Notes: a model not told the origin generated them from the letters alone. 64,000 nt of DNA from Polyangiaceae bacterium (GCA_050287085.1 JBNKBE010000003.1:303350-367349); one strand, 5' to 3'. Positions 24,056 to 41,178 are shown, counted from the first letter of the stretch. Made by a program: numbers and translations.

Positions 24056-24736
24056 CTAGTCCAACCGAATTGGCACGTGTTTCTTTGGCTTCTTCACCCG
24101 TCGCCGGCGCTTGGGTTTCGGCTTATCGTCAACCAGCGTCGGCGCATACACGAGCACGTCGTCTTGCTCCGCAGCGACCAGAGTTGTATTGGGATTCACG
24201 GGTTTGACATAGCGGTGAGCGCTGGTATCGAGCGCTACGCCTATCCGTGCCGCCGGTGGGCGCCGGAGCAAGACATGCGCCACGCCGTACGCGTCGGTCT
24301 TAGCAACCTCCCGGCCGTCGACGGATATGCCTATGTCTGGGAATCCGGTCCGAACCAGCAGCACGTTGTCTCGCTCCGTCGGCGTGCAAACCAACGCTTC
24401 CTGAATCGGGGCGATCTTGCCCGTCTGCATGGACCGCACCTGAGTTAACACCACAACAAACTCGTTTTGAGATGTTGTGAACCCTTCGGGACAAGTGAGG
24501 CCCCCCTTGAGACGAGTGCCGTCCGGAGCCTGATGGGTGAAGAGCGCCGTTCCGTTAGCATCCGTAACGCCCTCGCTATGGTGCTCCAACGCAACGCGTA
24601 CACCCGTCAACGGCTGCCCGTCCGATGTCACTGTGATGGCGATTTGATGCTGGGGCACGGGCGGCTTTTCGCAGCCCAAGAGTCCCGCAAACGAGAGCCC
24701 CAGAATGCCAAGCCACCCCCCAAGGCGCGCTGTCAC
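24056..24736 (-). CDS. Hypothetical lipoprotein (beta-rich domains, basic tail), last gene of the Tad left operon
   Basis: Lipobox LLGC; two similar units (GVTDANGTA / AKTDAYGVA); KPKPKRRRRVKKPKK tail; 4-nt overlap with the upstream gene. Confidence 0.75.
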   Translation of the reverse strand: MTARLGGWLGILGLSFAGLLGCEKPPVPQHQIAITVTSDGQPLTGVRVALEHHSEGVTDANGTALFTHQAPDGTRLKGGLTCPEGFTTSQNEFVVVLTQVRSMQTGKIAPIQEALVCTPTERDNVLLVRTGFPDIGISVDGREVAKTDAYGVAHVLLRRPPAARIGVALDTSAHRYVKPVNPNTTLVAAEQDDVLVYAPTLVDDKPKPKRRRRVKKPKKHVPIRLD

Positions 24737-26223
24737 TGTTGCCCTCCCGCCGATACCTTGCTCGCGATTATTCTCGCCATGGCCGAAAGCGCGGGGTCCT
24801 GCGGGTATTCGGTCGCAAGCCTGCGGTAGCGCGTCAACGCCTTGTCGTAATCGCCGTTCAGATACGCCGCCGCCGCCTCGTCGGTATTGAGCACGACGGG
24901 CCCGTCTGCCGGGGCCGGCTCGGGGGTAGCCGTCTTGGTGTCCGAAGAGGAAGGCTTACCATCAAGAGCCTCCAGCGCCTCCCCCTCCTGAGCCGGCGTC
25001 GCCCCTGCGCTCGACGCACTGGGAGCCAAAGCCGACGCACTGGGAGCGGGAATAGCGGGACTATTAGCCTGGTCCGCAGCCGCAATTTGTTCACGAAGCG
25101 CCGGCGAGCTTGAGCCGGCACTGTCGCGCGATTCGAAAAGAAAAGTGGCGCCCAGAACAAGCAGCGCCACAACCGCCCCAAGGCCCAGAAATAGCGTTCG
25201 TGTGGGAACCCCCCCCTTGGCGTCTTTCGACTTGGCTCCTCGTCCCGAGCCCTTGAGCTTCTGCACGAGCTCCGGCGAAACGCCATCCGCCTCCATTGTC
25301 ATCAGGCCCCAATGCCCCCCCGCCTTACTGCTGTCGGACGAAACAGCCTGGATGGGTCCAGTTACGAGACCGCCGCCCGCTGGGGGTCGTCCCGATTCTG
25401 GGGTTGAGCCAGCCAGTGCCGCGGCCGGTCGCCGGGCAAAGTCCGAGGCCGACATTTCAACCGTCGCTCGGCCCCCGGTTGGAGCATGCGGTCGCAAGCT
25501 TGCCGGGATGCCGCTATCGCCGTCCGACTGGAGCCTTGCTCCGCTCTCGAGCTGAGCAGACGTCGCTCCGGGGCCAGCTTGTGCCACTTGCCAAGCTGAT
25601 GCGCTGAGCGGAGATGGCACCCCAACAGAAGAAACGGGATGAGCGTCGGTCACCCCAAGTCCAGCTGGCGCCCGCTCCCCGAAGCCCGCCGGCTGGGGCA
25701 GACCGGAAAGAGGCATGGCCGCCGTCGGTACCTCGGCCGCCGTGGGGCCCACTCCTCGAAAAGACGCGCTCGACCCGTCGGGAAGACTCCCGGGGCGCGA
25801 ACTCCAGGCGGCGGCGCCTGCCTGAGGGAGCTGAAGCGCGCTTGCCGCTCCTGAGTCCGCCGACGCAAGCGGAGGCTCCGCCGCCATATAATTTGCCCCT
25901 CCCGCCGTCGGGTCACCTGCGCGCCAATCCGGGCCCGCCGCGCCCAACTGCGTCCTTTGCAGAAGCTCCTGACGCGCCGGGCCCTGCGCTCGCTCTGAAC
26001 CCGGGTGGGACACATCCACCGGGGGCGCCATGACCATCGTGCCGAACGCACCTCTCGCGCTGGTCGGTGCCGGCCCGACGGGCATGCGACTCCCTTCCGG
26101 AGCGATTGCTTGGATAGGCGTCCCCATCACCTGGGTGCGCAGCAAGGCCTTGTTCGGGCTCGTCCCGGCACGGGGAGACGCCTCGCTTTCGGGTCGGCTT
26201 TCGGGTCGCTTTGGGTCGGTCAT
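24733..26223 (-). CDS. Pro/Ala-rich membrane protein with C-terminal TPR-like motif
   Basis: ATG at 26223 overlaps the CpaF stop (ATGA); long low-complexity region, TM LFLGLGAVVALLVLGATFLF, then AAAYLNGDYDKALTRYRRL. Confidence 0.75.
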   Translation of the reverse strand: MTDPKRPESRPESEASPRAGTSPNKALLRTQVMGTPIQAIAPEGSRMPVGPAPTSARGAFGTMVMAPPVDVSHPGSERAQGPARQELLQRTQLGAAGPDWRAGDPTAGGANYMAAEPPLASADSGAASALQLPQAGAAAWSSRPGSLPDGSSASFRGVGPTAAEVPTAAMPLSGLPQPAGFGERAPAGLGVTDAHPVSSVGVPSPLSASAWQVAQAGPGATSAQLESGARLQSDGDSGIPASLRPHAPTGGRATVEMSASDFARRPAAALAGSTPESGRPPAGGGLVTGPIQAVSSDSSKAGGHWGLMTMEADGVSPELVQKLKGSGRGAKSKDAKGGVPTRTLFLGLGAVVALLVLGATFLFESRDSAGSSSPALREQIAAADQANSPAIPAPSASALAPSASSAGATPAQEGEALEALDGKPSSSDTKTATPEPAPADGPVVLNTDEAAAAYLNGDYDKALTRYRRLATEYPQDPALSAMARIIASKVSAGGQQ

Positions 26224-27335
26224 GATTGCGCTCGTCGGATGGCGGCGTACATCGCGTCCGGCAAATCGTACCCTGCTGCCTGCAGAGCCGACAAGCATTC
26301 CGGCCGATTTCCAGTAGCTTCAAGTTGGCTTTCTTGAAGCGAGGTACCCCGCGTCCCGGTGTAGCGGCGAACGTACAAGTCGTTGAGAACGTAGCGGTTC
26401 CCCTCGTCGCAGCCGACCACTTCCGTGATGTGCGTCACGCCTCGAGAGCCATCCGCCAGACGCGCCACCTGCACGATCGCATTCACAGCGGAGGCAATCT
26501 GCGTCCGAAGGGCAGTGAGCGGCAGTTCGACGTTGCTCATCAACGCCATGGTCTCTAGCCGGCTGAGCGTATCCTTCGGATAGGTCGCGTGAACGGTGGA
26601 CAGACACCCACCGTGGCCTGAGGTCATCGCCTGCACTAACTCCAAGGCCTCACCTCCACGGATTTCGCCGACCACGATGCGATCCGGACGCATGCGCAGG
26701 GTGGCCTTGAATAGATCGCGAATGGTGATCTGCCCCCGCCCGCGGGGGTCTGGCGGGCGGGCTTCCAATTGCACAACGTGATTCTGCTGCAACTGAAGTT
26801 CGCGAGCGTCCTCGATCACCACAACGCGGTCCCCACTCGGAATGAACGAGGAAAGACAATTGAGCAGGCTGGTCTTGCCGGAGCCGGTTCCGCCGGCAAC
26901 AATGACGTTTTGTTTGGCGGCAACGATGGCCTGCATCACGGACGCCGCGTCGGACGTGACAGATCCAAACTGCAGCAGCTTATCGATCGTCAAAGTGTCT
27001 TTAGAGAAGCGCCGAATGGCCACGGACGGACCCTCTGGCGAGATGGGCGGAAGCAAAGCTTCGATGCGTGAGCCATCAGGAAGGCGCCCTTCCAAGATGG
27101 GGTGCAGCTCGTCCAAAGGACGCCCTACAAACTGGGCAATATTACGCAGCGCGCTCATCAGCTGCTCAACGGACTTGAAAGACGCCTCGGTCTTGTGAAT
27201 CTGCCCCTTGCGCTCGATGAAGATCTCGCTGGGTCCGTTGATCATCACCTCACTGACGCTCGGGTCGTCGAGAAATGGGATGATCGGGGCCAGAAAACCA
27301 CGAATCGACTCTTCGTAGACATTCTTCGGGATCAC
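26220..27335 (-). CDS. cpaF: CpaF/TadA-family ATPase, short second copy
   Basis: SEVMING, RLPDGSR, IRRF, GGTGSGKT, EDAREL, LRMRPDRIVVGEIRG and GHGG..TVHA. Confidence 0.93.
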   Translation of the reverse strand: MIPKNVYEESIRGFLAPIIPFLDDPSVSEVMINGPSEIFIERKGQIHKTEASFKSVEQLMSALRNIAQFVGRPLDELHPILEGRLPDGSRIEALLPPISPEGPSVAIRRFSKDTLTIDKLLQFGSVTSDAASVMQAIVAAKQNVIVAGGTGSGKTSLLNCLSSFIPSGDRVVVIEDARELQLQQNHVVQLEARPPDPRGRGQITIRDLFKATLRMRPDRIVVGEIRGGEALELVQAMTSGHGGCLSTVHATYPKDTLSRLETMALMSNVELPLTALRTQIASAVNAIVQVARLADGSRGVTHITEVVGCDEGNRYVLNDLYVRRYTGTRGTSLQESQLEATGNRPECLSALQAAGYDLPDAMYAAIRRAQS

Positions 27336-28027
27336 GGGCTTGTCTCCCCTTGGGGTGCCACGTCGGCAGCGGGAGGCGCAATAGCCTGCTCGTTTGAAGG
27401 CACAACGCTCGAGGATTGTCCTGTAGCCGCAGCTACCTCGCCGGATGCGGGATGCGCGGCAAGCCAGCGCCGGACCTCGCGTCCATGCTTGCCCGCGCTA
27501 TCCACCTGCAGATACCGTTCATAGTAGAGCCGCGTGGCCGCCGGATCAGCGCTCACCTGCCAGAGAGTCTTGCCGTATAGGAACAGGACCTGCGGAGCGT
27601 TGGGGTCGAGCTCCAATGCAAAACGCAGCTGCTCAAGCCCCCGGTCCGGTTGGCCAAGGCCGACGTAGAGTGAGCCAGCCAAAGCGCGCAGCGCGACATC
27701 GTCTGGCTCGACCTCCAACTCCCGAAGTGCGTAGTTTAACGCAGAGCGCAGACGCGAAGCCTCCAAACACACGCGCAGCAATTCCTCCAGCACTGCGCGG
27801 CGCGGATAGCCAGCCGTGCGTGCCGCATTGAAGTAGTGCTCCGCCTTCACGTTGTCTCCCGCCTGCGCATAGAGCTGGGCTGTCTGAAACAACTTTGTTG
27901 GATCCGCCTGCGCAACAGTGCTCGGCACTTTGGCTTCCTCGGATGAATGTCCACAGGACATCGCACCGGTCAGCATCACCACGCCCGCCACGCCCCAGAG
28001 GGAAGCACGTTGTCCCGAAAGCACCAC
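27332..28027 (-). CDS. TPR lipoprotein (TadD/pilotin-like)
   Basis: Lipobox-like AMSC, several TPR helices (ALELDPNA); located in the Tad operon. Confidence 0.7.
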   Translation of the reverse strand: MVLSGQRASLWGVAGVVMLTGAMSCGHSSEEAKVPSTVAQADPTKLFQTAQLYAQAGDNVKAEHYFNAARTAGYPRRAVLEELLRVCLEASRLRSALNYALRELEVEPDDVALRALAGSLYVGLGQPDRGLEQLRFALELDPNAPQVLFLYGKTLWQVSADPAATRLYYERYLQVDSAGKHGREVRRWLAAHPASGEVAAATGQSSSVVPSNEQAIAPPAADVAPQGETSP

Positions 28028-28857
28028 TATCGCCCCTTGAGCTGGTGCTCGATACGACTTCCCAAGCGCACGAGTTGATCTACCTCAGGCAGAGCTTCCC
28101 CATGCAGCAGCTTCAGAAGCTCACGAACGTTGTCCAAGGCGCGGGGCAAATCCTTGTTTTCTAGCGCCAATTCGAGACGCAGTCGCGCGGCCGTGATATC
28201 CGTTCGGACTCGCTCTTGCCAACGGATGCCGGCCTCAGCGGTACGTTTGGCGCCATCAGCGTCGCCCGCTTTGCCGTAACACGAGCTCGCTTCCGCCAAT
28301 AGACGTCCCGCAAGTACCCCGTCGTGCGGGTCAAAAACGTAGCGTTCCTGCTTTGCCGCTGCACCGCGCTCCGCCTCGTGAGCACGATGCAGCGGCTGAC
28401 CTTCGGCGGCTCCGCACGGAACCGGACCAAAAAGCTCGGGGATCTTGATCTCATTGGCGGCGCTACCGTCCACCTTCTCGGGCGCAAAGAAGGATAGGAC
28501 CATGATGGCAACGGCCGCCGCCGCCGCAACCAATATCACTGGAGATGGCCCCCCTTTGCCAACAACCGATTCAGTGCGTGCCACCGTAAACCGGTACGCA
28601 CCCACGAAGAAGTCGGCATCGTAGGGGATCAGGCCGCCGACAAAATCCTTGCCCTCATGCATCATCGGGGGCGCGCCGTGGGCAAGTCGCAACTTAACCC
28701 CATCGTCCATGGGCTTGACCGAGAAATGCTGACCCAACATCTGAGCGTCTTCGAAGCGAATGGCGCTGTCTGAACCGCTACCGATGATGGCGCGTTCGAC
28801 GATCTGAAATCGGCGTTCAGGCTCTCCAGCGCGCGAAGCCTTGAGGGTTGCTTTCAT
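28027..28857 (-). CDS. Membrane protein with degenerate FHA-like N-terminal domain
   Basis: IIGSGSDSAIRFED....QHFSV FHA-like pattern, central TM, helical C-terminal domain; start overlaps the tadC stop by 1 nt. Confidence 0.65.
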   Translation of the reverse strand: MKATLKASRAGEPERRFQIVERAIIGSGSDSAIRFEDAQMLGQHFSVKPMDDGVKLRLAHGAPPMMHEGKDFVGGLIPYDADFFVGAYRFTVARTESVVGKGGPSPVILVAAAAAVAIMVLSFFAPEKVDGSAANEIKIPELFGPVPCGAAEGQPLHRAHEAERGAAAKQERYVFDPHDGVLAGRLLAEASSCYGKAGDADGAKRTAEAGIRWQERVRTDITAARLRLELALENKDLPRALDNVRELLKLLHGEALPEVDQLVRLGSRIEHQLKGR

Positions 28858-29777
28858 CAGAAACTCCCGCCGCCTGAAAGAAAAGGTCCCATCAATAAGA
28901 TGAGAATACACCCCATGAGCAGCATCATGGGGATAATCATGAACACCCCAGCACGAGCGGCCGCCTCCTCTGCTAGCACGCTCCTCCGCATCCGCGCCGA
29001 AGTCGCCTGGATCCGAAGGGCGTCGGCGATTGGATTGCCCTTCTCCTCCGCCTGAATCAAGGCTCGCGTGAAGTCACGGACAGCATCGGTCGGCACACGC
29101 TCTTCAAGTTCCGTCAAGGCTTGCTTTCGAGTCTGTCCTAGCTCAAGCCCGCGCAGCAAGCCTCCAAGCTCTTGGGCGACGACATCCTGCTCGTCTCCCC
29201 CTTCGCTGATCTGACGGAGCGCTCCAGGAAAATCCATCCCCGCCCCCATGCACATGGCCGCCACATCGAGCGCTGCCGGCAGGCCCCGGTCCATGCGCTT
29301 CTGACGGCTGGCGGCCTCATTTCCCAGCTGGGAATGAATCAGCCAGTAGCCCGCACCGGCCCCGATGGCTATCCAAAGAAGGCCTCCGTCGGTCCACACC
29401 ATCACGGCAGCTCCCATGGAACCACATGCCCCAATGCCCACGAGCAACATCGCGATGTACTCGTCTTCAGTAAGACCTAGGTAATAGCCGGCTTCCACGA
29501 GACGCTGACCTTGCACCGCCCCCCACTCGGACAGTCGGGCACCGAGCCCAAAAGGATTGGTGCGCCTGAGCTCCGCCAGAACGGCCCCAATCCGTCGAAT
29601 CAGTGGCTCCGCCACGCGAAATCCGCTGTTCTCTTCCAAAGCCAGAGTGCGCTGACGGCCTCGACTGCCCAACGTCGGACGGGCGATCAAGGGTACGGCT
29701 AGAAACCCGTACACCAGCCAGCCGAGCCCAACGAAAAGCAGGCCGATCGCGGGGTAGCGCAGAAGTGAGTAGTCCAC
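28857..29777 (-). CDS. tadC: Tad platform protein TadC (T2SSF family)
   Basis: LPAALDVAAMCMGAGMDF, ELGQTRKQAL, LIQAEEKGNPIADALRIQA and AEEAAAR. Confidence 0.92.
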   Translation of the reverse strand: MDYSLLRYPAIGLLFVGLGWLVYGFLAVPLIARPTLGSRGRQRTLALEENSGFRVAEPLIRRIGAVLAELRRTNPFGLGARLSEWGAVQGQRLVEAGYYLGLTEDEYIAMLLVGIGACGSMGAAVMVWTDGGLLWIAIGAGAGYWLIHSQLGNEAASRQKRMDRGLPAALDVAAMCMGAGMDFPGALRQISEGGDEQDVVAQELGGLLRGLELGQTRKQALTELEERVPTDAVRDFTRALIQAEEKGNPIADALRIQATSARMRRSVLAEEAAARAGVFMIIPMMLLMGCILILLMGPFLSGGGSF

Positions 29778-29786
29778 GATAGCCTC

Positions 29787-30641
29787 CTAGACGTCCACGG
29801 CGAGAATCTTACGGGCGAGAAGGCCAGCGCTGATCCACAGGATAGCCGCGCCGCTCAGAAGAAGATTTCCCATGAACGTTTCGAACATGGGCTTGAAGAA
29901 CTCCGGCATCATGGAGTTGATCGAAAAGAAGAGCGGGATAGGAATAGCGCTGATAACCCACGCCTGGGCTTTGCCTTCAGCTGTCTTGGTCCGTACCACA
30001 CCCTCGAGCCGCGCCATTTCGCGTAAGCTCTCGGCTGCACGCTCCAAAGTATGTGGCAGGTTTCCACCACTTGAGCGCGCGACAACCAGGGTCGACATCA
30101 CCGTACGCACCGATCGACTGCCGATGCGCTCTGCCCCGAGGGTCAACGCGCGGTCCAGCGGCGTGCCCAGATGGTACTCCTTCAAAATGAGGTCGATCTC
30201 ATCCCGAATCGGAGGCTCCACAATGGTGAGCGTCGCCTGCAGTGAATCTCCGATCGCCGGCGTTGCCTTTAGTGCATTGGCTAGCGACGTGACCCATCCA
30301 TCGAGCTGTTCCTCGATCCGGTTCACGCGCTTGGCATGCTGCTGCCCCAGAATCACATTCGCCAGCGGAACCGCACATAACACCACTGCTCCCAAGAGTG
30401 GCAGCCACAGCAGCAACAGCACGGACGCCGCGATGGCGAGGCCCTGTCCAAGCACGAAGGTCTCCGCCTTCGTCTTCGAATGCATGAGCTTCAGCTTGCT
30501 GGCGATCGACGCGGTGTACGCCCGCAAGCGAGCGCGCGTCTTGGTCTCATAAGGAATCAACTCGTAGGCCAAGAACGTACTGAGCCCAAGGCTCAACAGC
30601 GCTAGCGCCAACCGACCCCAAATGTACGCGGGTACACTCAT
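29787..30641 (-). CDS. tadB: Tad platform protein TadB (T2SSF family)
   Basis: EQLDG..SLANALKA, EYHLGTPLDRAL, GGNLPHTL and VRTKTAEGK; ATG at 30641 overlaps the cpaF stop. Confidence 0.92.
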   Translation of the reverse strand: MSVPAYIWGRLALALLSLGLSTFLAYELIPYETKTRARLRAYTASIASKLKLMHSKTKAETFVLGQGLAIAASVLLLLWLPLLGAVVLCAVPLANVILGQQHAKRVNRIEEQLDGWVTSLANALKATPAIGDSLQATLTIVEPPIRDEIDLILKEYHLGTPLDRALTLGAERIGSRSVRTVMSTLVVARSSGGNLPHTLERAAESLREMARLEGVVRTKTAEGKAQAWVISAIPIPLFFSINSMMPEFFKPMFETFMGNLLLSGAAILWISAGLLARKILAVDV

Positions 30642-32365
30642 AGGTATTCTCCGTCCTCCACAAGTCCATTCGTAATGAACTGGTCCAAAAACGTCGGCAG
30701 GTAGCCGGTCGCTCGAAACTCTCCTTCGATCTTCCCCTTGGGGCTCGTGCCCGTTCGCACGTATGCGAAGATCTCGTTGATCTCGATTTCGCCGTCGTCG
30801 CCAATACCGCAAACTTCAGCAACACTCGTAACGCGACGACTGCCATCGGAGAGTCGAGTCTGCTGGAGGATGATGTGAACGCTGGCTGCGATCTGCGAGC
30901 GGATCGCCCGTATCGGCAAGTCCATACCCGCCATAAGACACAACGTCTCAATCCTGGCTATCGCCTCTTTCGGACTGTTGGCATGTGTGGTCGTCATCGA
31001 CCCTTCATGCCCAGTATTCATCGCCTGAAGCATGTCGATGGCCTCCCCCCCGCGACACTCACCGACCACGATGCGATCCGGTCGCATGCGCAACGCGTTC
31101 TTCACCAAATCGCGAATGGAGTATTCACCCTTACCTTCGAGGTTGGCGGGGCGTGATTCAAGAGAAACGACATGAGTCTGGGCCAGCTGAAGCTCTGCGG
31201 CATCTTCGATAGTAACGACTCGTTCCGACTCAGGTATCGATGCCGACAAGACGTTCAGCAATGTCGTCTTGCCACTGCCCGTTCCGCCTGAGATGACAAT
31301 GTTGCGCCGAACGCGTACCGCGCGGTCCAGAAACCGCGCGATCCGGTCTGTCATCGCCCCGAAGCTTATCAAGTCCTTGATCGTCAGCGGGGTCTTCGCA
31401 AACTTGCGGATCGTGATGCAGGGGCCCTTGATGGCCAAGGGCGGAATCACCGCGTTGACGCGCGAGCCGTCTTTGAGACGAGCATCGACCAGCGGCGTCG
31501 ATTCATCGATCCTTCTCCCAAGCGGAGTCACGATGCGTTCGATAGCCGCACGCACGGATTCGTTGTCCGTAAAGCGAGTGCCGGTCATCTCTAGGCGCCC
31601 GCGACGTTCGACGAAGATCGTCTGCGGATCGACCACCATGATCTCGGAAATATCGGGGTCGGCGAGCAGGTCCTCGAGTGGTCCGAGTCCCAGAGCCTCG
31701 TTGGTTAGCTCCTGAATCAGAAGTTCGCGATCGGCGTGCGCAGGCAGTTCGGACGCCAGTTGGACCACGATACGACGCAGCGCATTGACCACCTTCTCGC
31801 GCAACGACGGGTCGGCAAGCGCGTGACGATCCAGCGTTGGAAGGTCGAGATTGTCCAGCAGTTGTCGCTGAATGCGTCTTCGCAAGAGCGGTGACTCAAC
31901 GCCTGAACTCCGGGAGCGAACCGGTGGCAACTCCGCCATGGAGAGCTGAGGTCGCCGTGACTGGGAAGGCTTGGCGACGGCGGACTGCGGCGAAGGAGTC
32001 CGCACCACCGGGACGGCCGCTGCGGACGGCTGAGCGGATACCGAGTCCGATGCCTGCCCGCAGTTGATGACGAGACGGTACGGGCCAAGGACAAGCTGCA
32101 CCGGGTCGAACATCGGCAGCCTGCGAGAAGCTTTGCTCAGCAACGAATCGTTGACCAGGGTCCCATTGGACGAGAAGTCCGTCACCTCCAGTTGCTCGTC
32201 GCGAATGCGCAATGCAACGTGCCGCCGCGAGATCGACGCCGCGTCCAGGATCAGATCGCAGGACTCGTCGCGGCCGAGCCAAAACGGCTCCGCCGTCAGC
32301 GGGTGGCGGCGCACATCTGGCGCACCGCCACCGTCCTTCTGCACCCGAAACTCAGCCGACACCAT
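30638..32365 (-). CDS. cpaF: FHA-domain-fused CpaF/TadA ATPase
   Basis: N-terminal FHA (LGR..SRRH..SNGT); GLGPLEDLL, GGTGSGKT, EDAAEL, LRMRPDRIVVGECRG and NTGHEG. Confidence 0.95.
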   Translation of the reverse strand: MVSAEFRVQKDGGGAPDVRRHPLTAEPFWLGRDESCDLILDAASISRRHVALRIRDEQLEVTDFSSNGTLVNDSLLSKASRRLPMFDPVQLVLGPYRLVINCGQASDSVSAQPSAAAVPVVRTPSPQSAVAKPSQSRRPQLSMAELPPVRSRSSGVESPLLRRRIQRQLLDNLDLPTLDRHALADPSLREKVVNALRRIVVQLASELPAHADRELLIQELTNEALGLGPLEDLLADPDISEIMVVDPQTIFVERRGRLEMTGTRFTDNESVRAAIERIVTPLGRRIDESTPLVDARLKDGSRVNAVIPPLAIKGPCITIRKFAKTPLTIKDLISFGAMTDRIARFLDRAVRVRRNIVISGGTGSGKTTLLNVLSASIPESERVVTIEDAAELQLAQTHVVSLESRPANLEGKGEYSIRDLVKNALRMRPDRIVVGECRGGEAIDMLQAMNTGHEGSMTTTHANSPKEAIARIETLCLMAGMDLPIRAIRSQIAASVHIILQQTRLSDGSRRVTSVAEVCGIGDDGEIEINEIFAYVRTGTSPKGKIEGEFRATGYLPTFLDQFITNGLVEDGEYL

Positions 32366-32386
32366 CGCGCTACCTCGCGGAAAACA

Positions 32387-33643
32387 TCACTTCGAGGCTT
32401 TGGACGAAGCGCCCTTGCTGGCGTTGTGTGCCCCCTTGCCTTTGGGTGGCAATAGCGGTCCCGTGAGCTCTATGCCTTCGAGGTCACCGCTGTAGTCCTC
32501 GAAGATCTGGAACGCTTCCTGTATCTGCTGCCGCGCTGAGAGGTCTACCGAATCGACCACCGACGGAACGATGAAAAGAACATTCTCCGTATTCTGGTCA
32601 ACGGCTCCCCAAGAACCAAATAGCGGACCCAACACCGGAATCTGGCTGAGGCCCGGCAGACCACTCTGACTTCGGATTGAAGACTGCGCCACCAGGCCCC
32701 CCAACATGACCGACTGCCCGAGCTCTAGATTGATGACCGAAGAAACTCGCGACGTCGTGCGTCCGGGGGTGCCGGTCCCGCGGTCATCCGTCAGGTCGGC
32801 AACGTCGGCAGCCACCACGAGCTCGAGCCGGCCACTCTCCGCATCATAGCGGGGCAGCACCGACACCGTGCTCCCAAACTTGATGCTGATGACCCCCGTA
32901 TTGAGGGCGTTTTGAATGGGGATATTCACTTCGCCGCCGCCCGAGAACTCAGCCTGCGTGCCGTTGGCCGTGATGACCGTGGCGTGGCGCACCAGCTTGG
33001 CGTGCCCGGTGACCTGAGCCAAGTCGAGACGTGGCAACAGCTGACTTGCGCTGAGCGCTGCCGACTGCAAGGCACCGCTCTGCAAGTCGACGGCAAAGGT
33101 TGCGGACGCCTGAGAGGGATATCCCGCTGGCCACGCAATGCCTAGCTGATGATTGTAGCCCTGATCCAACTGTAAGAAGTAGAGATCGAGTCTAACGTTG
33201 TCTTTGAGTTCAACCGCGTAGGGATTCTCCGGCTCCACCGCCCGGATGTCGCTGGATGCGTTCGGATCGGCGACGGTGATGCGGTATTGACGCTGGCTAC
33301 CGTCGGACATCAATAGCAGCAAGGTCGTTGCGCCAGGCCGAAGTGCGACGATTACGAAGTTGTCAGAGCTGGTCGTCAATCGCACGTCGACGATGCCCTT
33401 GACGCCCTCGGAAAACGAGTTGACTCCGTCGCTGGAAATCACCTTCTGCTCGCCGACATTCATGTTGAGCTCGATGAGCGTCGGAGCGGCCGCAGCAACG
33501 GGCACGAGAGCTTCGGCCTGGTACGCGAACGGGGCTCCCAAAGCCGCGAGGATCATGCAGCGGTGCAGCGTCCGCCAACGGCAAGCTCTGCCCAAGGTGG
33601 TGCTGCGCCCAGGCAACTTATCGACCAACTTATTAGTGAACAC
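32387..33643 (-). CDS. cpaC: Tad secretin CpaC/RcpA
   Basis: N-terminal pilus-formation domain (VALRPGATTLL); secretin motifs FSGGGEVNIP, FGSTVSVLP, LELGQSVMLGGL and GLPGLSQIPVLGPLF. Confidence 0.88.
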   Translation of the reverse strand: MFTNKLVDKLPGRSTTLGRACRWRTLHRCMILAALGAPFAYQAEALVPVAAAAPTLIELNMNVGEQKVISSDGVNSFSEGVKGIVDVRLTTSSDNFVIVALRPGATTLLLLMSDGSQRQYRITVADPNASSDIRAVEPENPYAVELKDNVRLDLYFLQLDQGYNHQLGIAWPAGYPSQASATFAVDLQSGALQSAALSASQLLPRLDLAQVTGHAKLVRHATVITANGTQAEFSGGGEVNIPIQNALNTGVISIKFGSTVSVLPRYDAESGRLELVVAADVADLTDDRGTGTPGRTTSRVSSVINLELGQSVMLGGLVAQSSIRSQSGLPGLSQIPVLGPLFGSWGAVDQNTENVLFIVPSVVDSVDLSARQQIQEAFQIFEDYSGDLEGIELTGPLLPPKGKGAHNASKGASSKASK

Positions 33644-34388
33644 GTTCTATCTCCCTTTTGTCAGCTTTCTCAGAGCCGCGACTAACTGTTCGCGGCTCCT
33701 CCGGCGGCGTACCCATAACGTCGCGTTGTGTTGCCTCGGGCAACTCATCGAGTACCTTGATGTCCGCAGCGTTTCTAACCACCAAGAGCAACCGTCCGTA
33801 CTGTTCGGCTGTGGCCAGCCGCTGGCTCTGCTGCGGATCCACGCTCACGACCACCTGCCCTGCCGCTCGCGTTGACACTTTGGCGTCCATCTGACCGCCC
33901 ACCGCGAGCACAAGAATGTCCTGCAACAAGGTCCGCGTGGACGTGGTTTCGCCGTCCGTGAAGAGCACATCCACGCGATCGCCTGGACGCAAGAGGCCAT
34001 CGAAGGTGCCCGCGCTACGCAGCGGGAAGGCCCGCTTTCCCTCTTGTACGGTGCTGCTCAGATCCCGGCCCGAGCGCCCCAAAGCGGCCACGTCACTCCA
34101 CAAGATCGGCTCATTGGCGTCGATCCGCGTGTTGAGACGAACGCCGACCACGCGTTTGACGGCCTCCGCTCGAATGTGGCGCGCGCCCACAAACGCTTGC
34201 GGAATGCTTCTTTGCCCGAGATCGGCCTCCGTCAGGAGGTCGCCTGGCGCTAGATCGTGGGTCGCGATGAGCACGGACATAGGAGCCCCTCCCGCGGCTT
34301 CGTCCTCGACGTGAGCCAGATATAAATGCCCTGCCGCGGCGCCTACGAGGGTCGCTGTAACAGCGGTAAAAAATGCGATCTTATTCAC
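33633..34388 (-). CDS. cpaB: Flp pilus assembly protein CpaB/RcpC
   Basis: N-terminal TM, SAF domain (VLIATHDLAPG), GKRAF, GLLRPGDRVDVL and LLQDILVLAVG; GTG at 34388 with upstream GGGGAAG. Confidence 0.92.
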   Translation of the reverse strand: MNKIAFFTAVTATLVGAAAGHLYLAHVEDEAAGGAPMSVLIATHDLAPGDLLTEADLGQRSIPQAFVGARHIRAEAVKRVVGVRLNTRIDANEPILWSDVAALGRSGRDLSSTVQEGKRAFPLRSAGTFDGLLRPGDRVDVLFTDGETTSTRTLLQDILVLAVGGQMDAKVSTRAAGQVVVSVDPQQSQRLATAEQYGRLLLVVRNAADIKVLDELPEATQRDVMGTPPEEPRTVSRGSEKADKREIERVH

Positions 34389-34695
34389 TACGACTTCCCC
34401 TTGAGAGCTGTAGGAGGGCCCCTCTTGTAGCTCCGTGCCGCACAGCAAGATAGTCCAAATCATTGACCTCCAGGGTTTTTCCCGCGTTTTCCTGACCGCC
34501 AGGTACACCCCGAAGCGTCTCACCGTCTCACAGGCAAGGAGACATCGTGCGGTGCGATTTCCCGGGACAAGCAGCCCGCTCTGGCGCTACACAATCACCA
34601 CGATGCAGGTCGGAGGTAGACATACGCCACGGAGGGACGGTAGACAACGCCCTGCGGCGGTTTCTCCAAACGGGGCGCCCGACGGGCCACGGGGG

Positions 34696-34968
34696 ATGGG
34701 CCAGCGGCTGTATGGAATGACCGTCGGCGTTTGCACGTCGAGCGCCATTGTTGGCCTCGCGCGCTGGGGTCGGCGACGGCGGCACGATGGGCTGCTAGGC
34801 AGCGGCCAAGGCCTGCACCGCGATGCTCAGGGCTCAGTCACCGTTGAATACACCATCATCTTGGTGCTCGTAGCACTCGTTGCCATGTTGCCGCTGATGT
34901 ACCTCGCGGCGGCTATGGTGCAGTATTATAAGGCCAATCGCATCGCGCTGATATTACCACTCCTCTAG
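34696..34968 (+). CDS. Flp-like minor pilin
   Basis: Prepilin site DAQG|SVTVEY followed by a hydrophobic helix. Start uncertain (34696 or 34717). Confidence 0.7.
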   Translation: MGQRLYGMTVGVCTSSAIVGLARWGRRRRHDGLLGSGQGLHRDAQGSVTVEYTIILVLVALVAMLPLMYLAAAMVQYYKANRIALILPLL

Positions 34969-34973
34969 GGTCA

Positions 34974-35010
34974 CACAACCATCGCGTCGTCACAACCATC
35001 GCGTCGTCAC
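34974..35010. repeat. Perfect 17-bp tandem duplication
   Basis: CACAACCATCGCGTCGT twice (34974-34990, 34991-35007) plus CAC. Confidence 0.9.
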
Positions 35011-35185: not shown

Positions 35186-35410
35186 ATGTCGTTGATTCAA
35201 AAAGTTCGCAATATTAAGAACCTCGAGCTGAGCCGCGACGAGCGGGGGCTGTCCACCGTTGAGTACGTGATCCTGCTTGTGGTCATCGCCGCTCTCTGCG
35301 TCGCTGCTTGGCGCGCCCTGGGCAACGAAGTACAGGGCAAGCTGAACAGCGCGAAGGGGCAGATCAGCACAGAGACCAACATCGAGGGGGCGCAGGGCAA
35401 CGTTGAGTAG
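35186..35410 (+). CDS. flp: Flp (type IVb/c) pilin, probable major pilin
   Basis: 74 aa; DERG|LSTVEY Flp motif; purine-rich RBS region; strong hairpin downstream. Confidence 0.92.
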   Translation: MSLIQKVRNIKNLELSRDERGLSTVEYVILLVVIAALCVAAWRALGNEVQGKLNSAKGQISTETNIEGAQGNVE

Positions 35411-35434
35411 CCTGTGACTCGAGCTGAGCTCGCG

Positions 35435-35474: not shown

Positions 35475-35539
35475 AGCTGCGCGCCACCTAGGCGTCGAAG
35501 CTCGCGGGCGCTCGCCTGCTTCAAGGAAGGAAAGAATTC

Positions 35540-36052
35540 ATGTTGGCCGCTTGGGTAGCGCTGTTTGCCGCAGGCGCCTCTGCAGCTATCGACGCGCGCA
35601 CGGGCAGGATCCCCAACTGGCTGACGCTGCCGCTCGTGCCTCTGGGAGTAGCACTTCAGGCTCTTGATTCGGGCTCTCGTGGGCTTCTTGCGGCGGGTCT
35701 CGGGGCCCTGTTGTGTTTCCTTGTGCCCTTCGTGATGTTCTGGAGCACGCGGGGCGCGGCCATCGGTGGCGGGGACGTCAAGCTTTTTGCTGGGCTCGGG
35801 GCGTTGCTTGGCCCGGGCATAGGATTGGAGGTCGAACTCGGCGCATTTGTTGCGCTGACCGTGCTAGCGCTCTTCGTGCTCACCTGGCGCGGTCTCTTGT
35901 GGCGCACGCTCAAGAACTCGTTCTGGCTCTTCGCCAATCGCTTCCTTCCCAAGGAGAAGCGTAGAACGCTGCAGTTGCAAGCGATGACGTCGCTCCGCAT
36001 GGGTCCTGCCATCTTCATCTCCTGCGGCATCTCGCACTTCTTGCTGCGCTAG
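35540..36052 (+). CDS. cpaA: Prepilin peptidase CpaA/TadV (A24 family)
   Basis: D..TGRIPNWLT and IGGGDVKLFA aspartic motifs; multiple TMs; RBS AAGGAAGG. Confidence 0.93.
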   Translation: MLAAWVALFAAGASAAIDARTGRIPNWLTLPLVPLGVALQALDSGSRGLLAAGLGALLCFLVPFVMFWSTRGAAIGGGDVKLFAGLGALLGPGIGLEVELGAFVALTVLALFVLTWRGLLWRTLKNSFWLFANRFLPKEKRRTLQLQAMTSLRMGPAIFISCGISHFLLR

Positions 36053-36139
36053 CTGCCTGGCTCAGCTCAGACCCAGCGCAGGTCGCGCCCCAGCGCCCGT
36101 AGCGCCGAGTCCTCCCCTTTGGACCCACGTTTTAGATCC

Positions 36140-37096
36140 ATGACGACCGAGTCGAGCTCCCCTAGCCGCTTCGCCTCCGAGCGTCTCGCCCAAAGCGAAC
36201 GTGGCGCGGTCTACGTTGAATTCATCATCGCGTTCATCCCGATGTTCATCTTCTTTCTCGGGATGCTCCAGCTAGCGTTCATGGAGTCTGGTCAGCTGAT
36301 CGTAAGCATGGCCGCGCAGAAGGCGGTTCGAGCAGCTGTCGTCCAGTTGGACAATCCCAAAGTGTGTCTGAGCGGCGGCAGCCAAGAACGTCAGAATCCA
36401 TTCTTGGGGAGCGGGGGCGCTACCGCCCCGGGCGCTGGCCGAACGAGTGGCAACGAGGTGATGGACAAGATCCGCGCAGCGGCCTACCTACCGCTCGCTA
36501 CACTCGGTCCCCCAGCGCATTCCTACCCTTTCCTGGGCAACGTCCTCAGTGGTTTGAATTTTGCCGGAGAGCAGACAACCCGCATGTTGCTCGGCTACTT
36601 CGCCTACGGTCCTGGGGCAGCGGCGGTCTGGCTGATGGATGAAGTTGGCAATCTCGTTGAACCGGCAGCTCTTCGTGCGTCGCTCAGCGGTGACCACTTG
36701 ATTACGGTCCACGTCCACTACGTCTTTCCGTGTATCGTACCGCTAGCTAGACACATCATGTGCCGTCCCCTCTACGACATGGTTGGGTTGAAGGAATCCG
36801 TGACCCGCCTCAAGGACCGCGCACAGAGCTTGTCTTTCAGCGAGATCATCGCCGATCCGGAAGACGTATGGGACGAGATGGAGTCAGGAGTCCAGCAGAT
36901 AGAAGATCGCATGGACGACAGCAAGGAGCTCTATTCCAAGCTGAAGCGCGCTGAGACCCCCGCACTCATGATGCCCTGGGTATTCGGTGACATGCGATTC
37001 GTGGTCCTCGAGGCTGAGGCTGCACTTCCCAATCAGTGGGCGAGCTACGCTCACGATGCCATCAAGAAACGCTGCGGCGAAGAGGTCGCCCCATGA
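36140..37096 (+). CDS. tadE: TadE-like minor pilin (large)
   Basis: ERG|AVYVEFIIAFIP and AAQKAVRAA TadE motif. Confidence 0.85.
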   Translation: MTTESSSPSRFASERLAQSERGAVYVEFIIAFIPMFIFFLGMLQLAFMESGQLIVSMAAQKAVRAAVVQLDNPKVCLSGGSQERQNPFLGSGGATAPGAGRTSGNEVMDKIRAAAYLPLATLGPPAHSYPFLGNVLSGLNFAGEQTTRMLLGYFAYGPGAAAVWLMDEVGNLVEPAALRASLSGDHLITVHVHYVFPCIVPLARHIMCRPLYDMVGLKESVTRLKDRAQSLSFSEIIADPEDVWDEMESGVQQIEDRMDDSKELYSKLKRAETPALMMPWVFGDMRFVVLEAEAALPNQWASYAHDAIKKRCGEEVAP

Positions 37097-39627
37097 CAGG
37101 ATGCGCCTCGAAGGCGCCTTCACAGGGTGACGTGTCAGGCCAAGGCGCATCGCTCTGGGGTAACCAGCAAGGCGCGATAATGGTCATGGGCTTGTTCATG
37201 GCCACGGTGCTTGTCGGCGCCTTGTACTACGTGGTCGGGATTGGCGAAGCCGTCGCCCACCGCGAGGCCATGCAGGACGGCGCAGACGCCGCCGCACTTT
37301 CGGCGGCGATCACCATCGCCCGCGGCATGAACGCGATCGTTCTGATCAACTTGGTGATGGCCGCGCTCGTGCTGATCATTCTGGTTCTCAAACTGATCGT
37401 CACCCTGCTCGGTATCGCCGCACTCATCTTGGCCGGATGCTTCATGTTCGGTCTGGCTGCTACAGTCGGCGGCTGGGCCTACGAGGTCAATCAGGTAGCG
37501 AACGAAGTACAGAACATCGTCTTTCGGGCATTGGAGGTTTGCCACTACGCGGAATACGTCGTCAAGATCGTCACTCCGGCAGCTGCAGAAGTCGTCACCG
37601 TGACCGACTCAACGGCTCCTCCAGTGCAAATGGCGGTTGTACTTCCCGATCGCTGGACGCTGCCGGTCGAATCGGGTGACTACTCCAAGTTGTGCCGAAA
37701 GGCAGGTGAGTGGACTGGACAGCTCGTTGGCGAGCTCCTGCCATTGCCTCGCTTCGTGGTCAAGGCGCTGAAGAAGGGTGTGGGAGCTCTCGCCGAAAGC
37801 TTGAGCGAGTGGTTCTGCGGCGATGGCGGAGCACGTCCCCCTATGTCGGGCAGCCCGCCGAGCGTCAAGTACGATACCGACAAGGTGTTCCCCACATGGG
37901 CTGAGAACGACCGCTGCGAAGCGAAACGCCTGGACGGAAGCGTCGAGTACGCCACCGCGCCCGGAGAAGGCAAGTGGGATATCGACTCGCCTCGTCCCTA
38001 CAAGGCGGGCAGCACTTGTGACAACGCCGAGAAAACTCGACAGTCTATGTTGCCCCCCGAAGACCACTACGACGATCTCGACGCGATGTGCGAAGCCCCT
38101 TGCGATCGCAAGATCTACGAGTCGAACCTGAGCAACGCGCGTCAGGAGTGCAATGCCGCCAAGCCCGCACACGGAAAAGAGCCGAAGGGCTACATGTACT
38201 CCACAGCGAGGTTCGTCGACGTCTACGAGTGGCACAAGCAGAGCAAAACGTTCTCATTGGTCGATACTGAGGTGAGCGACATCGACGTTCATGGTCGCCG
38301 CGAGGAGGCTCCCTCCGGCAACGGCATCAACGCCGAAGCGCCACCGGCTTCGAACAATCCTTGCGCGAGATACTGGCTGACATTCGACCGTTTCAACAGG
38401 AAGTTGAAACCCTGGAACCTCGCTCCCAACTCGCCCAACGGGGAAATCCGACGTCCAGTTTGTGGTCCAGAACCGACGGGCATTCCGCAGGTGGACCCCA
38501 AGCGCCCCCCGATGCTTGAAGACGGTGCCCTGGTCAAGACCGACCCTTACACCGCGGTCCTGGACGTCTACTACTGTACGATCAAGGTTACCCAAGAACG
38601 CCAGATCTCGATGGACGGCCTGGGGGGCCTGGGCGGAAGTGTTCCCGGAGGCGAAGGAGAAGAACAGGGCGACGACAAGAAGGCCCCATTCTTCGTGGAA
38701 AAGGGATTGGAACAAGGGGCAGGCGCCTTTCAGGTCCGGTCGATCGCCATTGGAAAGGGTGCGCCAGGCGCCTGGGTAGACCGCGTGATCAACGTGGGCG
38801 CTTGGGGCAAACGACTCAAGTGGAGCGAACCCGGTTTGGACTTCGTCGAGGACCTCAAGCTCGGCAACTTCGCGCTCGCGCAAGCTGAGTTCTTCTTCGA
38901 GCCCCCCTCCGACAGCCAGGACGACCATGCCTCCCGAGTTCGACGCGCGACGGACAAGGACAGCTGGAATTGGGAGATGGGTTGGCGTGCTCGCCTTGTC
39001 CCCTTCACCCTTCCTTCCAAGAAGGACGATTCGGGCAAGCAGGGCCAGTCTTCCTCGCAACCCAACGCACGAGGTGGCGGTACGCCTCAACCCGGCACAC
39101 GAGGCGGAGGTGCCCAGCCCCCGACCCAGCCGGGGCAATCCAGCGCTCAAGGTCCAGGGTCGACCGATAGCAACGCGCCACCGCCCCGAAGCCCTGCCGA
39201 CTTCAGCCTCGACCCTTCGGTTTCCTCCCTGCTGCCGCCAGCAGGTGACTATACGAAAGCAGCGCTGAACCAGGCAAAGAGCGGTCTTCAGGAACAAGCG
39301 GGTGCCTTGCCCTGTGTTCCAGGTGCCAGTGTCGGCCTCTTCGGAACGAAGTGTTCACCCCTCCCCGGACTCCCCAATCCGGTAACCGGACTGGACAGAC
39401 TGGACCCGTCGTCACTGCCTTCACCCCAGAGCCTGCTCGATTCCGGAACGTTCTCTTCCCAAGGCATCTCAAAAGCCGCTCAGAAACTCCTTCCGGAGAA
39501 ATTCAGGTTCCCGCCCACGCCGGAAACGCTCTGCGACATTGCAAAAGTGGCAGATGCCGACATCGGCAAGACCTGCGTGCAGGTGATCACGACCGTGGGC
39601 GACGTAGCCGCGCTCATCAATCATTGA
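37093..39627 (+). CDS. tadG: TadG-like large Cys-rich pilin / tip protein
   Basis: QQG|AIMVM (no Glu at +5), MQDGADAAALSAA Tad motif, extra TMs, Cys-rich body; ATGA overlap with tadE. Confidence 0.8.
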   Translation: MTGCASKAPSQGDVSGQGASLWGNQQGAIMVMGLFMATVLVGALYYVVGIGEAVAHREAMQDGADAAALSAAITIARGMNAIVLINLVMAALVLIILVLKLIVTLLGIAALILAGCFMFGLAATVGGWAYEVNQVANEVQNIVFRALEVCHYAEYVVKIVTPAAAEVVTVTDSTAPPVQMAVVLPDRWTLPVESGDYSKLCRKAGEWTGQLVGELLPLPRFVVKALKKGVGALAESLSEWFCGDGGARPPMSGSPPSVKYDTDKVFPTWAENDRCEAKRLDGSVEYATAPGEGKWDIDSPRPYKAGSTCDNAEKTRQSMLPPEDHYDDLDAMCEAPCDRKIYESNLSNARQECNAAKPAHGKEPKGYMYSTARFVDVYEWHKQSKTFSLVDTEVSDIDVHGRREEAPSGNGINAEAPPASNNPCARYWLTFDRFNRKLKPWNLAPNSPNGEIRRPVCGPEPTGIPQVDPKRPPMLEDGALVKTDPYTAVLDVYYCTIKVTQERQISMDGLGGLGGSVPGGEGEEQGDDKKAPFFVEKGLEQGAGAFQVRSIAIGKGAPGAWVDRVINVGAWGKRLKWSEPGLDFVEDLKLGNFALAQAEFFFEPPSDSQDDHASRVRRATDKDSWNWEMGWRARLVPFTLPSKKDDSGKQGQSSSQPNARGGGTPQPGTRGGGAQPPTQPGQSSAQGPGSTDSNAPPPRSPADFSLDPSVSSLLPPAGDYTKAALNQAKSGLQEQAGALPCVPGASVGLFGTKCSPLPGLPNPVTGLDRLDPSSLPSPQSLLDSGTFSSQGISKAAQKLLPEKFRFPPTPETLCDIAKVADADIGKTCVQVITTVGDVAALINH

Positions 39628-39634
39628 GGATGTC

Positions 39635-40228
39635 ATGAACTACAGGCGCCGCGTTACCCCTCGTCGTTCCCCCGCACCCCGGGTCGGCGCCCAGCGTGGT
39701 GCCGCGATGGTCGAGGCTGTGATCATGCTTCCCTTCTTCATTCTGATCTACTTCGGCATTCACTACTGGGGCGCCCAGGAAATCGCGCGAACGCTCGCAA
39801 AGCAACACGCTCGGAGCTGCGCGTGGACCTATTCAAACGACGCTTGCAAGGACACGGCCCGAGTGCAGAAGGTATGTGGCGACCGCGGACGCCTCCATTT
39901 TGGGCGACCTACCGACAGCGGGGGTGCTCCTGATTTGGAAAAAAGCGCGAGTGATCGAGTGAATCAGAAGACGGGTGGAGCCAATCTCCCATCTTCCGGT
40001 CGCAGCGGCAAGATCGGCGATTTCGCGGGCAAATGGCTCGATGAGGCTCTCGAGGCGCTGCTCGGCAAGAAGCGGACTCGAACCGCAAGCATCGACGTGC
40101 GCGCCCCCTCCCTCTTCGCCCAGAAGAGTACGCAGGTGTCGGGCTCCTATCGGCTGACGTGCAACCAAGAGCCGAAGACGATCCGACAACTCTTCAACGA
40201 GCTGTGGAAGAAGATAAGCCCCTTCTAG
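39635..40228 (+). CDS. tadE: TadE-like minor pilin
   Basis: QRG|AAMVEAVIMLP and ARSCAW; RBS GAGGA. Confidence 0.83.
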   Translation: MNYRRRVTPRRSPAPRVGAQRGAAMVEAVIMLPFFILIYFGIHYWGAQEIARTLAKQHARSCAWTYSNDACKDTARVQKVCGDRGRLHFGRPTDSGGAPDLEKSASDRVNQKTGGANLPSSGRSGKIGDFAGKWLDEALEALLGKKRTRTASIDVRAPSLFAQKSTQVSGSYRLTCNQEPKTIRQLFNELWKKISPF

Positions 40229-40257
40229 GACCTCAGACAGACCAGGCAGGCCGCGCG

Positions 40258-41178
40258 ATGGGAATAGTGAAGCGATACCTTGTACAACGATTGGACCGAC
40301 CTTGGGTGAGAGTCGGTCTGCTTGCCTTGACGCTCACCGCAGTCTCGGTCCCCATCAGCTTGCGTATCGCACGGGCCCAGGCGGGCGCCGCGCTGGGCAA
40401 CCTCGCCGAAAACGTCGCAAAGCTTGCCCCTCCCAACGCCGAAGGTGCTCGACAAGCGCTCGAGGTCAACGGCTTTCAACTCGGCATGCGAGTCGAATCA
40501 TCGACGCTGAGCCCTGCTGAAGCGATCACGTTCGCGACCGATGACTGTCGGCTGAGCGCCGGAATGCAGCGCGCGCCCCTCGACTTGAACGATACATTGC
40601 CTTCGCTGAAGGAGCAGTCGAATCCCAGCATCGCCAACGGCGCTGAGGGCGTGCTAGTAGAGGAAACAGGCCAGGGCACCGTGGTCGCCTGCATCGATAC
40701 CAACGGCGTCGAGTGGCTCAGCCACGACATGCTGGAGCGGTTGGAACGCTTCATGACCAACGGCGAACTCGCGGAGTTGGGGGTCGTTCGCTACTACCTG
40801 GTACGTCCCAGCTTGCACGGCTCGACGATAGTACACATGTGGTCGGAGGGGCGTGCCCCCATTCTCAAGATGTTCCCAAAAGACGGAGATGTCCCAGGCA
40901 CGGATCACGACTTCGTACCGCGAGTGGGAGGACAACGCATGCTGTCCGCCAAAGTAGCGACGAATTCTGTGCTGAGCTATCGGCACGAGGGCGAAAGCGT
41001 GGACGCTGTCTGGGAACGCCTTGACGCCCGCCTCGCCGAACGCGGCTTGCGCTCCCGGCCTGTTGGAGAGGGCGCACCAGGGAAACGCGCTTGGGTCGGC
41101 GACGGCTCGCGTGAAAGCTTGGTCACGGTACAGTCGGTCAAGGGCACGACCTACCTGAGCGTCTTTGATCTGCCCTAA
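40258..41178 (+). CDS. Hypothetical exported/membrane-anchored protein, last gene of the pilin operon
   Basis: N-terminal hydrophobic segment VGLLALTLTAVSVPI, globular body, 29 nt after tadE. Confidence 0.7.
   Translation: MGIVKRYLVQRLDRPWVRVGLLALTLTAVSVPISLRIARAQAGAALGNLAENVAKLAPPNAEGARQALEVNGFQLGMRVESSTLSPAEAITFATDDCRLSAGMQRAPLDLNDTLPSLKEQSNPSIANGAEGVLVEETGQGTVVACIDTNGVEWLSHDMLERLERFMTNGELAELGVVRYYLVRPSLHGSTIVHMWSEGRAPILKMFPKDGDVPGTDHDFVPRVGGQRMLSAKVATNSVLSYRHEGESVDAVWERLDARLAERGLRSRPVGEGAPGKRAWVGDGSRESLVTVQSVKGTTYLSVFDLP

Follow-up and report, generated by a model that had tools for sequence, protein, structure and literature searches.

Tad pili are generally adhesive. Two characterized relatives of the system described here are needed for predation, the Kil system of Myxococcus xanthus (MXAN_3102-3108 and 4648-4661; Seef 2021 PMC8460266) and the Tad pilus of Bdellovibrio bacteriovorus (Tesseur 2026, bioRxiv 10.64898/2026.07.08.737194). 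A Kil-like Tad system is also described for the Bradymonadales (B. sediminis DN745_00680-00700; Seef 2021 PMC8460266; Herrou 2025 PMC12075869). The window analyzed here, a stretch of 64,000 nucleotides from a Polyangiaceae bacterium (class Polyangia, Myxococcota), contains at positions 24056-41178 a Tad/Flp pilus locus of 17 genes, which form a complete set for one machine. It encodes two CpaF/TadA-type ATPases, an FHA-fused main motor and a short second ATPase, and the latter is the main subject of this study.

The locus shares with the Bradymonadales system the contiguous core in the order cpaB, secretin, FHA-ATPase, tadB, tadC, and FHA-transmembrane protein, and both fall into the same clade in three trees. 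In the Bradymonadales, too, a short second ATPase is followed by a transmembrane protein gene and an Ig-like lipoprotein gene. However, the module there is an operon of its own that includes the gene for a kinase-like transmembrane protein, whereas the window holds everything in one locus, and the Bradymonadales secretin gives a weak BON match. With M. xanthus Kil, the locus has in common the FHA-fused ATPase, the lack of TadZ, a short secretin, a set of three minor pilins, and, right behind tadC, an FHA protein; the ancestral gene order corresponds to Kil cluster II plus an inserted secretin and ATPase. In contrast, Kil is described as two clusters with a single ATPase (Seef 2021), and it has KilD, a BON domain in KilC, and KilP plus four tips encoded elsewhere. 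The window encodes one tip set and two ATPases in one locus, without a full-length KilD or a BON domain, and therefore does not count as Myxococcus Kil proper.

Every core component has its homologue in the canonical Tad/Cpa pilus (Caulobacter CpaF), and the main motor has the architecture of class III CpaF. Whereas the canonical pilus combines TadZ with one bifunctional ATPase bearing a three-helix bundle, the window encodes two intact ATPases, the second of which lacks most of the bundle. The predatory B. bacteriovorus is reported to have several tadA paralogues with FHA/TPR genes nearby, but there TadZ and TadA are fused in the main motor, and the additional tadA copies occupy loci of their own, of which rcpA2-tadA2 is dispensable (Tesseur 2026). 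Bdellovibrio-like TadZ-TadA fusion ATPases were also seen in several Myxococcota families (loci L099, L100, L116, L117, and L118). By analogy, the pair of motors in the window resembles that of PilB/PilT(/PilU) type IVa pili, in which a long, N-terminally extended motor may be compared with the main motor and a short motor of N-terminal domain plus ATPase domain with the second. Like PilT, the second ATPase lacks an N-terminal extension domain, and its catalytic residues are intact. It belongs to the CpaF family, however, and matches TIGR01420 only with an E-value of 7e-13, so that a retraction function would be assigned by analogy.

A second ATPase with a rewired extension face

The second ATPase (26220-27335, minus strand, 371 amino acids) combines intact catalytic residues with a single bundle helix and a charge-swapped extension face. 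Conservation was assessed in 158 rows, 38 from the loci and 120 from the database, in which the window protein occurs twice besides other near-duplicates. The comparison set comprised 97 other TadA rows after exclusion of nine outgroup or divergent rows, and positions follow Caulobacter numbering. The Walker A lysine, both Asp-box glutamates, R223, R347, R349, and both histidines are kept in all 158 second-ATPase rows, the Walker B glutamate in 157, and R217 in 156.

The N-terminal face and the bundle are reported to bind the platform in extension (Yen 2025 PMC12019362; Whitfield 2026 bioRxiv 10.64898/2026.02.24.707734). The alpha5/loop 8 and pore-loop sites predicted to touch the platform are exchanged in the second ATPase. 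Position 331, usually glutamate (E331), is acidic in 96 of the 97 other TadA rows and R/K in 145 of the 158 second-ATPase rows; at position 197, D/E (91/97) is likewise replaced by R/K (157/158). R198 is lost throughout (R/K 0/158 vs. 97/97), R206 is lost in 157 rows (R/K 1/158 vs. 94/97), and N329 is replaced by an aspartate that is found in all 158 rows and in none of the 97.

The bundle is reduced as well. Walker A begins at residue 147-156 in the 120 database homologues, and nine of 34 scored loci have an in-frame stop at most 37 codons away from the N-terminal domain, compared with about 108 codons or more for most main motors, which leaves room for one helix of a three-helix bundle. This bundle is described as part of the minimum architecture, with no protein obtained upon its deletion (Yen 2025). 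In structure prediction, a complex of the second ATPase with the cytoplasmic domains of TadB and TadC scored 0.00, which gives no answer either way, and the single-sequence fold (predicted local distance difference test, pLDDT, 36) was unusable.

Distribution and inheritance of the second ATPase

A search of 301 Myxococcota genomes (cut-off E ≤ 1e-103) matched the second ATPase in 89, or about 79 after removal of ten near-threshold matches, nine of which coincide with main-motor match positions, while the tenth is an untested frame of 818 amino acids. In the family of the window organism, both ATPases occur in the same 18 of 23 genomes and neither in the other five. Family f15, labelled Bradymonadaceae by its match to published rows, has the second ATPase in 23 and the main motor in 25 of 26 genomes, and family f16 has both in 7/7. 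In a tree built from 60 of 144 ATPases (IQ-TREE, LG+G4), the second ATPase forms its own clade (support 100/99) outside all TadA and KilF sampled (94/98) and divides into the main subgroups also seen for its partner. On these shared subgroups and the shared 18 of 23 genomes, the two ATPases are inherited jointly. The 301 genomes included no Myxococcales genome (one chance match had a stop inside); for its absence from Myxococcus, the basis is the statement of Seef 2021 together with 0 of 20 Myxococcales cluster-I metagenome loci, with flanks of at most 10 kb.

A pseudo-ATPase or a recent duplicate was ruled out: identity to the partner is 45%, the clade is a separate one, and the catalytic residues are retained. 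The two CpaF ATPases listed by an earlier reading of the sequence alone (hereafter the sequence-only reading) are both present, and both have intact catalytic residues. No published description of the second ATPase was found in the literature searched, which did not extend to subscription journals, so this conserved second motor seems to be unpublished.

Several variants were noted among the loci. One subgroup (L007, L008, L010, L011, and L097) has a shrunken locus with an FHA-less transmembrane protein, a short transmembrane neighbour, and a C-terminally truncated second ATPase. Loci of families f42 and f27 (L110:3545-6010, L111, and L112) encode a KilD-like protein of tandem FHA-TPR type immediately upstream of the second ATPase. 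Three loci of family f15 (L149-L151) carry a third, divergent CpaF-like ATPase between FHA genes, two of the three without a standard Walker A. In an Omnitrophota Tad locus (L029:9107-12351), the gene for a TadZ-TadA fusion directly precedes that for a short second ATPase, in which D329 is shared; the tree position of this ATPase is unstable because of long branches, and the locus suggests that two-ATPase Tad loci also exist outside Myxococcota.

Role of the second ATPase

Retraction is assigned to the motor's C-terminal face, with P386/R387, the beta13-14 turn, and the C-terminal motif (Whitfield 2026). In the second ATPase, the beta13-14 motif R-x-x-D-G-x-R is invariant (158/158) and P386 is kept in 155 of 158 rows. 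The partner motors have R/K at position 387 in only 14 of 44 rows, compared with 51 of 53 other TadA/KilF rows. Taken together, the rewired extension face, the kept beta13-14 motif, and the relaxation of R387 in the partners suggest a PilB/PilT-like split. We tentatively favour, at somewhat less than even chances, a model in which extension of the pilus falls to the FHA motor, while the short second ATPase is an auxiliary motor for pilus retraction or disassembly on contact with other cells, probably prey.

In this model, the peptidase would mature the Flp and TadE/TadG pilins, and the TadE-TadG-TadE trio would form a Kil-style tip. Phosphothreonine signalling rather than TadZ would recruit the FHA motor. 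The second ATPase, presumably unable to dock in the usual extension orientation, would act via its C-terminal face or via the transmembrane protein encoded downstream, and may drive retraction or disassembly when the pilus contacts other cells, probably prey.

Several observations speak against this division of labour. R387 is variable in the second ATPase itself (R/K in 19 of 38 rows from loci and 55 of 120 database rows), neither motor has R/K at this position in 16 of 38 pairs, and six of 38 second ATPases end before the C-terminal retraction motif. The partner motors retain the beta13-14 motif and may therefore still be bifunctional. The swapped face appears newly conserved rather than decayed, which a new binding partner would explain equally well, and the 158 rows, with their near-duplicates, are weighted to close kin. 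That the single invertible CpaF has divided in Polyangia, Bradymonadia, and related Myxococcota into one motor for extension under FHA control and another reserved for retraction, as a PilB/PilT-like reinvention to reel in and kill prey, is rather unlikely.

The second ATPase could also be a PilU-like booster or regulatory subunit that does not contact the platform by itself; it would then be stacked onto the FHA motor, be mixed into it, or use its remodelled face to bind a transmembrane adaptor with an FHA or kinase domain. The fixation of the swapped residues (D329 in 158/158, R/K197 in 157/158), as expected for a new interface, fits such a role, as do the variability of R387 and the FHA or kinase-like domain which the adjoining transmembrane gene bears in relatives. 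On the other hand, the catalytic and inter-subunit arginine residues are all kept, making a homohexamer feasible, and the cytoplasmic part of the transmembrane neighbour is not conserved in sequence; we regard this role as rather unlikely. Least probable among the motor models is a semi-independent module of second ATPase, transmembrane protein, and lipoprotein that powers another step, such as cargo loading or export through the same secretin: the trio is an operon of its own in Bradymonadaceae (in four genomes 15-19 kb away from the core, in G012 about 2.8 Mb), the architecture of N-terminal domain plus ATPase domain only is VirB11-like, and the clade lies outside all TadA/KilF sampled, but in Polyangia the gene sits inside the core operon with overlapping codons, the genome holds one TadB/TadC pair, no cargo gene is apparent at the locus, and the deep tree position could be a rate artefact.

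Phylogenetic position, TadZ, and FHA domains

In the ATPase tree, the FHA motor of the window shares a clade supported at 99/96 with further Polyangia, with family f15 (Bradymonadaceae), and with three more Myxococcota families. The sister of this clade is a group holding the Myxococcales KilF (85/80), for which kilF loci were taken from metagenomes (cluster-I order FHA, peptidase, BON-secretin, KilF, KilD). The secretin tree (48 rows) separated canonical diderm Tad with 100/98 and united the two-ATPase group with 91/86; the TadB+TadC tree (44 rows), a comparison with Bradymonadaceae that included no Myxococcales rows, recovered the two-ATPase group with 100/99. Because the core groups with the Bradymonadales and away from canonical Tad in all three trees, the system is, by phylogeny, a sister lineage of Kil on a shared branch with the Bradymonadales Kil-like system. 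The closest named loci are those of Polyangia (Chondromyces, Polyangiaceae, Kofleriaceae).

No TadZ/CpaE was found in the 6.2-Mb, 96.8%-complete genome. A hidden TadZ did not turn up either: the best genome protein reached 80 bits with the TadZ profile, below all 11 held-out TadZ proteins (105-232 bits). The FHA domain of the main motor keeps the phosphothreonine motifs G-R, S-x-x-H, and N-G and is the only intact one of the locus. The FHA-like transmembrane protein has no Pfam FHA match of its own; FHA structures are matched only by the profile of its family (E 1.3e-5), and the window copy lacks all three motifs. Genome-wide, 44 FHA and 80 kinase matches were counted, so FHA content by itself is not distinctive. 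One of the 80 kinase genes, for a Ser/Thr kinase, lies in the window at 553-1170 (G000:C3:303902-304519), about 23 kb off the locus, with no link shown. Elsewhere in the genome, an FHA domain is fused to a CpaF-like fold without a recognizable Walker A motif (G000:C2:282374-284134, plus strand).

The sequence-only reading had proposed a Kil-like or sister system with extra subunits, and no recognizable CpaE/TadZ at the locus. Both proposals hold: the ATPase, secretin, and TadB+TadC trees, a check which that reading had called for, group the core with the Bradymonadales and away from canonical Tad, and the search for a cognate TadZ remained empty across the genome. Of its FHA modules, the FHA-fused CpaF is intact, whereas the second is degenerate. 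The novelty that it implied for two features is superseded by the literature. FHA-fused CpaF is published as class III, mostly betaproteobacterial (Yen 2025), and the compact single-locus core is already tabulated for four genera, in which KilB, C, F, G, and H have consecutive indices and KilP and Tip1-4 gave no hits (Sandaracinus 8549-8553, Chondromyces crocatus 627-623, Minicystis 9817-9813, Bradymonas 132-136; Herrou 2025, Suppl. Data 1).

Gene content and organization of the locus

The 17 genes form two operons. Every gene named by the sequence-only reading between 24056 and 41178 is present, and the mostly overlapping start and stop codons that it had seen in the left operon were confirmed for seven of nine junctions after refinement of the starts (-11, -4, -1, -1, -4, -4, and -4 nucleotides); the other two are gaps of 21 and 9 nucleotides. 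With a Flp pilin, a prepilin peptidase, RcpC, a secretin, TadA, TadB plus TadC, and TadE/G all present, the locus belongs to the Tad/Flp (type IVc) pili. Its guanine-cytosine content is in line with that of the remaining window, and its two TadA-type ATPases and its TadB/TadC pair are the only ones in the genome.

The minus-strand operon of ten genes starts with the CpaB/RcpC (KilB-like) protein (33633-34388, 251 amino acids, Pfam RcpC and SAF) and a short RcpA/KilC-like secretin with a pilus-N domain (32387-33643; Pfam, tree), in which no BON domain was detected with Pfam. The FHA-fused, KilF-like main motor (30638-32365, 575 amino acids, FHA plus T2SSE) is followed by the platform proteins TadB/KilG-like (29787-30641, refined start, 284 amino acids) and TadC/KilH-like (28857-29777, 306 amino acids), both assigned by T2SSF (PF00482) and tree. 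The 276-amino-acid protein encoded next (28027-28857) consists of the degenerate FHA/YscD-like domain, a transmembrane segment, and a periplasmic helical domain; its gene occupies the slot that MXAN_4649 has beside kilH in Myxococcus. A TPR protein of 231 amino acids (27332-28027, Pfam TPR) has a lipobox-like N-terminus as judged by eye and is a candidate pilotin; profile searches gave no TadD-specific match. In the closest relatives, about 3.3 kb are inserted between these two genes (L001:14215-17474 and L006:14224-17684). Downstream of the second ATPase (the second T2SSE match) lies the gene for a single-pass membrane protein of 496 amino acids (24733-26223) with a Pro/Ala-rich N-terminus, a transmembrane segment, and C-terminal TPR-like helices; the N-terminus of its relatives carries a Pfam FHA match in 3 of 18 or, in Bradymonadaceae, a kinase-like domain. 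The operon ends with a lipoprotein with Ig-like domains (24056-24736, 226 amino acids), which follows the second ATPase and the transmembrane gene in Bradymonadaceae as well; Cys22 is invariant in 19 aligned rows, and 5 of 19 members match Big_1.

The plus-strand operon of seven genes begins with two Flp-type pilins, both with the cleavage motif G|xxxxEY: pilin 1 (34717-34968, start uncertain, G|SVTVEY) and pilin 2 (35186-35410, 74 amino acids, G|LSTVEY), the likely major pilin. An orphan Flp pilin elsewhere in the genome (G000:C22:31675-32166, minus strand) is 74% identical to pilin 2 over 46 amino acids. A TadV/KilA-like prepilin peptidase (35540-36052; peptidase A24, PF01478) precedes a TadE-like minor pilin (36140-37096, 318 amino acids, PF07811), a large TadG-like minor pilin (37093-39627, 844 amino acids, 17 cysteines, Tad domain PF13400), and a second TadE-like minor pilin (39635-40228, 197 amino acids, PF07811). 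The TadG-like protein is the longest among 23 homologues compared and a candidate tip with a variable domain. The last gene (40258-41178) encodes a conserved protein of 306 amino acids with a long N-terminal helix followed by alpha/beta domains (model pLDDT 84.9), for which a comparison with PDB sequences gave no informative or credible match; its gene usually lies directly ahead of cpaB in relatives. The locus is flanked by orphan genes (23269-24024, plus strand; 41235-41738, minus strand) without a homologue in any fetched locus.

The divergent arrangement of a single locus, which the sequence-only reading had taken as a trait of the system, is real in this genome. A single unitig (23248-34968) of run X1, possibly the source sample, spans the cpaB/flp1 divergence point, making a misjoin unlikely. 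Repeats in the window are not meaningful except for an exact short tandem duplication at 34972-35010, just past the flp1 stop, where the unitigs break. None of the 33 relative loci in the synteny comparison, however, has this layout. Thirty-one of them are informative, with a pilin, a peptidase, a tip, or the unknown gene in view, and 30 of these 31 are co-directional with cpaB (L013 is inverted differently), so the pilin block was inverted locally in this genome and divergence as a feature of the system is ruled out.

A possible role in predation

We consider a predatory role of the pilus somewhat favoured. The alternative, a pilus for adhesion, surface sensing, or aggregation without prey killing, has an appreciable chance that nevertheless stays well below even; this question is separate from that of the motors, and the likelihoods given for the two do not add up to one whole. 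Against such a purely adhesive pilus stand the requirement of both Myxococcus Kil and Bdellovibrio Tad for predation, the clade shared with contact-dependent Bradymonadales predators, and the lack of the locus in the cellulolytic Sorangium: Tad genes are reported for four predatory Polyangiales genera, not for Sorangium (Wang 2023). The layout of the TadE-TadG-TadE trio is like that of Kil tips.

Other results weigh against predation. The link to the Myxococcales KilF has only the moderate support of 85/80, and FHA-CpaF is mostly betaproteobacterial (Yen 2025). No counterpart of KilD, KilP, or Tip1-4 is shown: full-length KilD was not found in the genome, where matches cover the FHA region only (27-31% identity), and KilP and Tip1-4 are entered as NA for four cultured Polyangiales in the table of Herrou 2025. 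The predators Haliangium and Nannocystales are reported to lack the genes (Wang 2023; Herrou 2025). Six two-ATPase genomes (G022, G028, G046, G082, G092, G242) gave no SctV match, and in genus g20, noted with the shrunken-locus subgroup, SctV was matched in 0 of 5 genomes.

Speaking for predation, the genome of the window contains non-flagellar type III secretion system-like genes scattered singly among housekeeping genes, namely SctV (G000:C4:121554-123575), SctU (C4:314521-315576), SctR (C18:8169-8867), SctN (C5:216465-217859), SctQ-like (C7:78782-80011), and SctJ-like (C8:174074-175069); no SctS/SctT was found with the queries used. The Myxococcus Kil system has a needle-less T3SS* as its partner. 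The predator Bradymonas is likewise described with type III secretion genes (Mu 2020). A long flagellar cluster with rod, MS-ring, C-ring, export apparatus, hook, FlhF, and FliA genes lies at G000:C21:53400-72800, and many genomes of this class have FlhA-level matches.

Implications

The compact Kil-like core and FHA-CpaF were already known, and most of the Kil-like identity has been published; what appears to be new is the conserved second motor together with the face-specific residue analysis. For the reversal of Tad motors, a 2026 preprint proposes a flip between two faces (Whitfield 2026). A widespread natural paralogue in which catalysis is kept and exactly the extension face is rewired offers a direct test of this two-face model, and cultured carriers exist in Chondromyces and Pendulispora. 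The locus is also the best candidate for a contact-killing machine in Polyangia. A second motor would depart from the rule of one motor per Tad pilus and, if the proposed roles are true, the two-motor Tad pilus would have arrived independently at the way in which PilB and PilT divide their labour.

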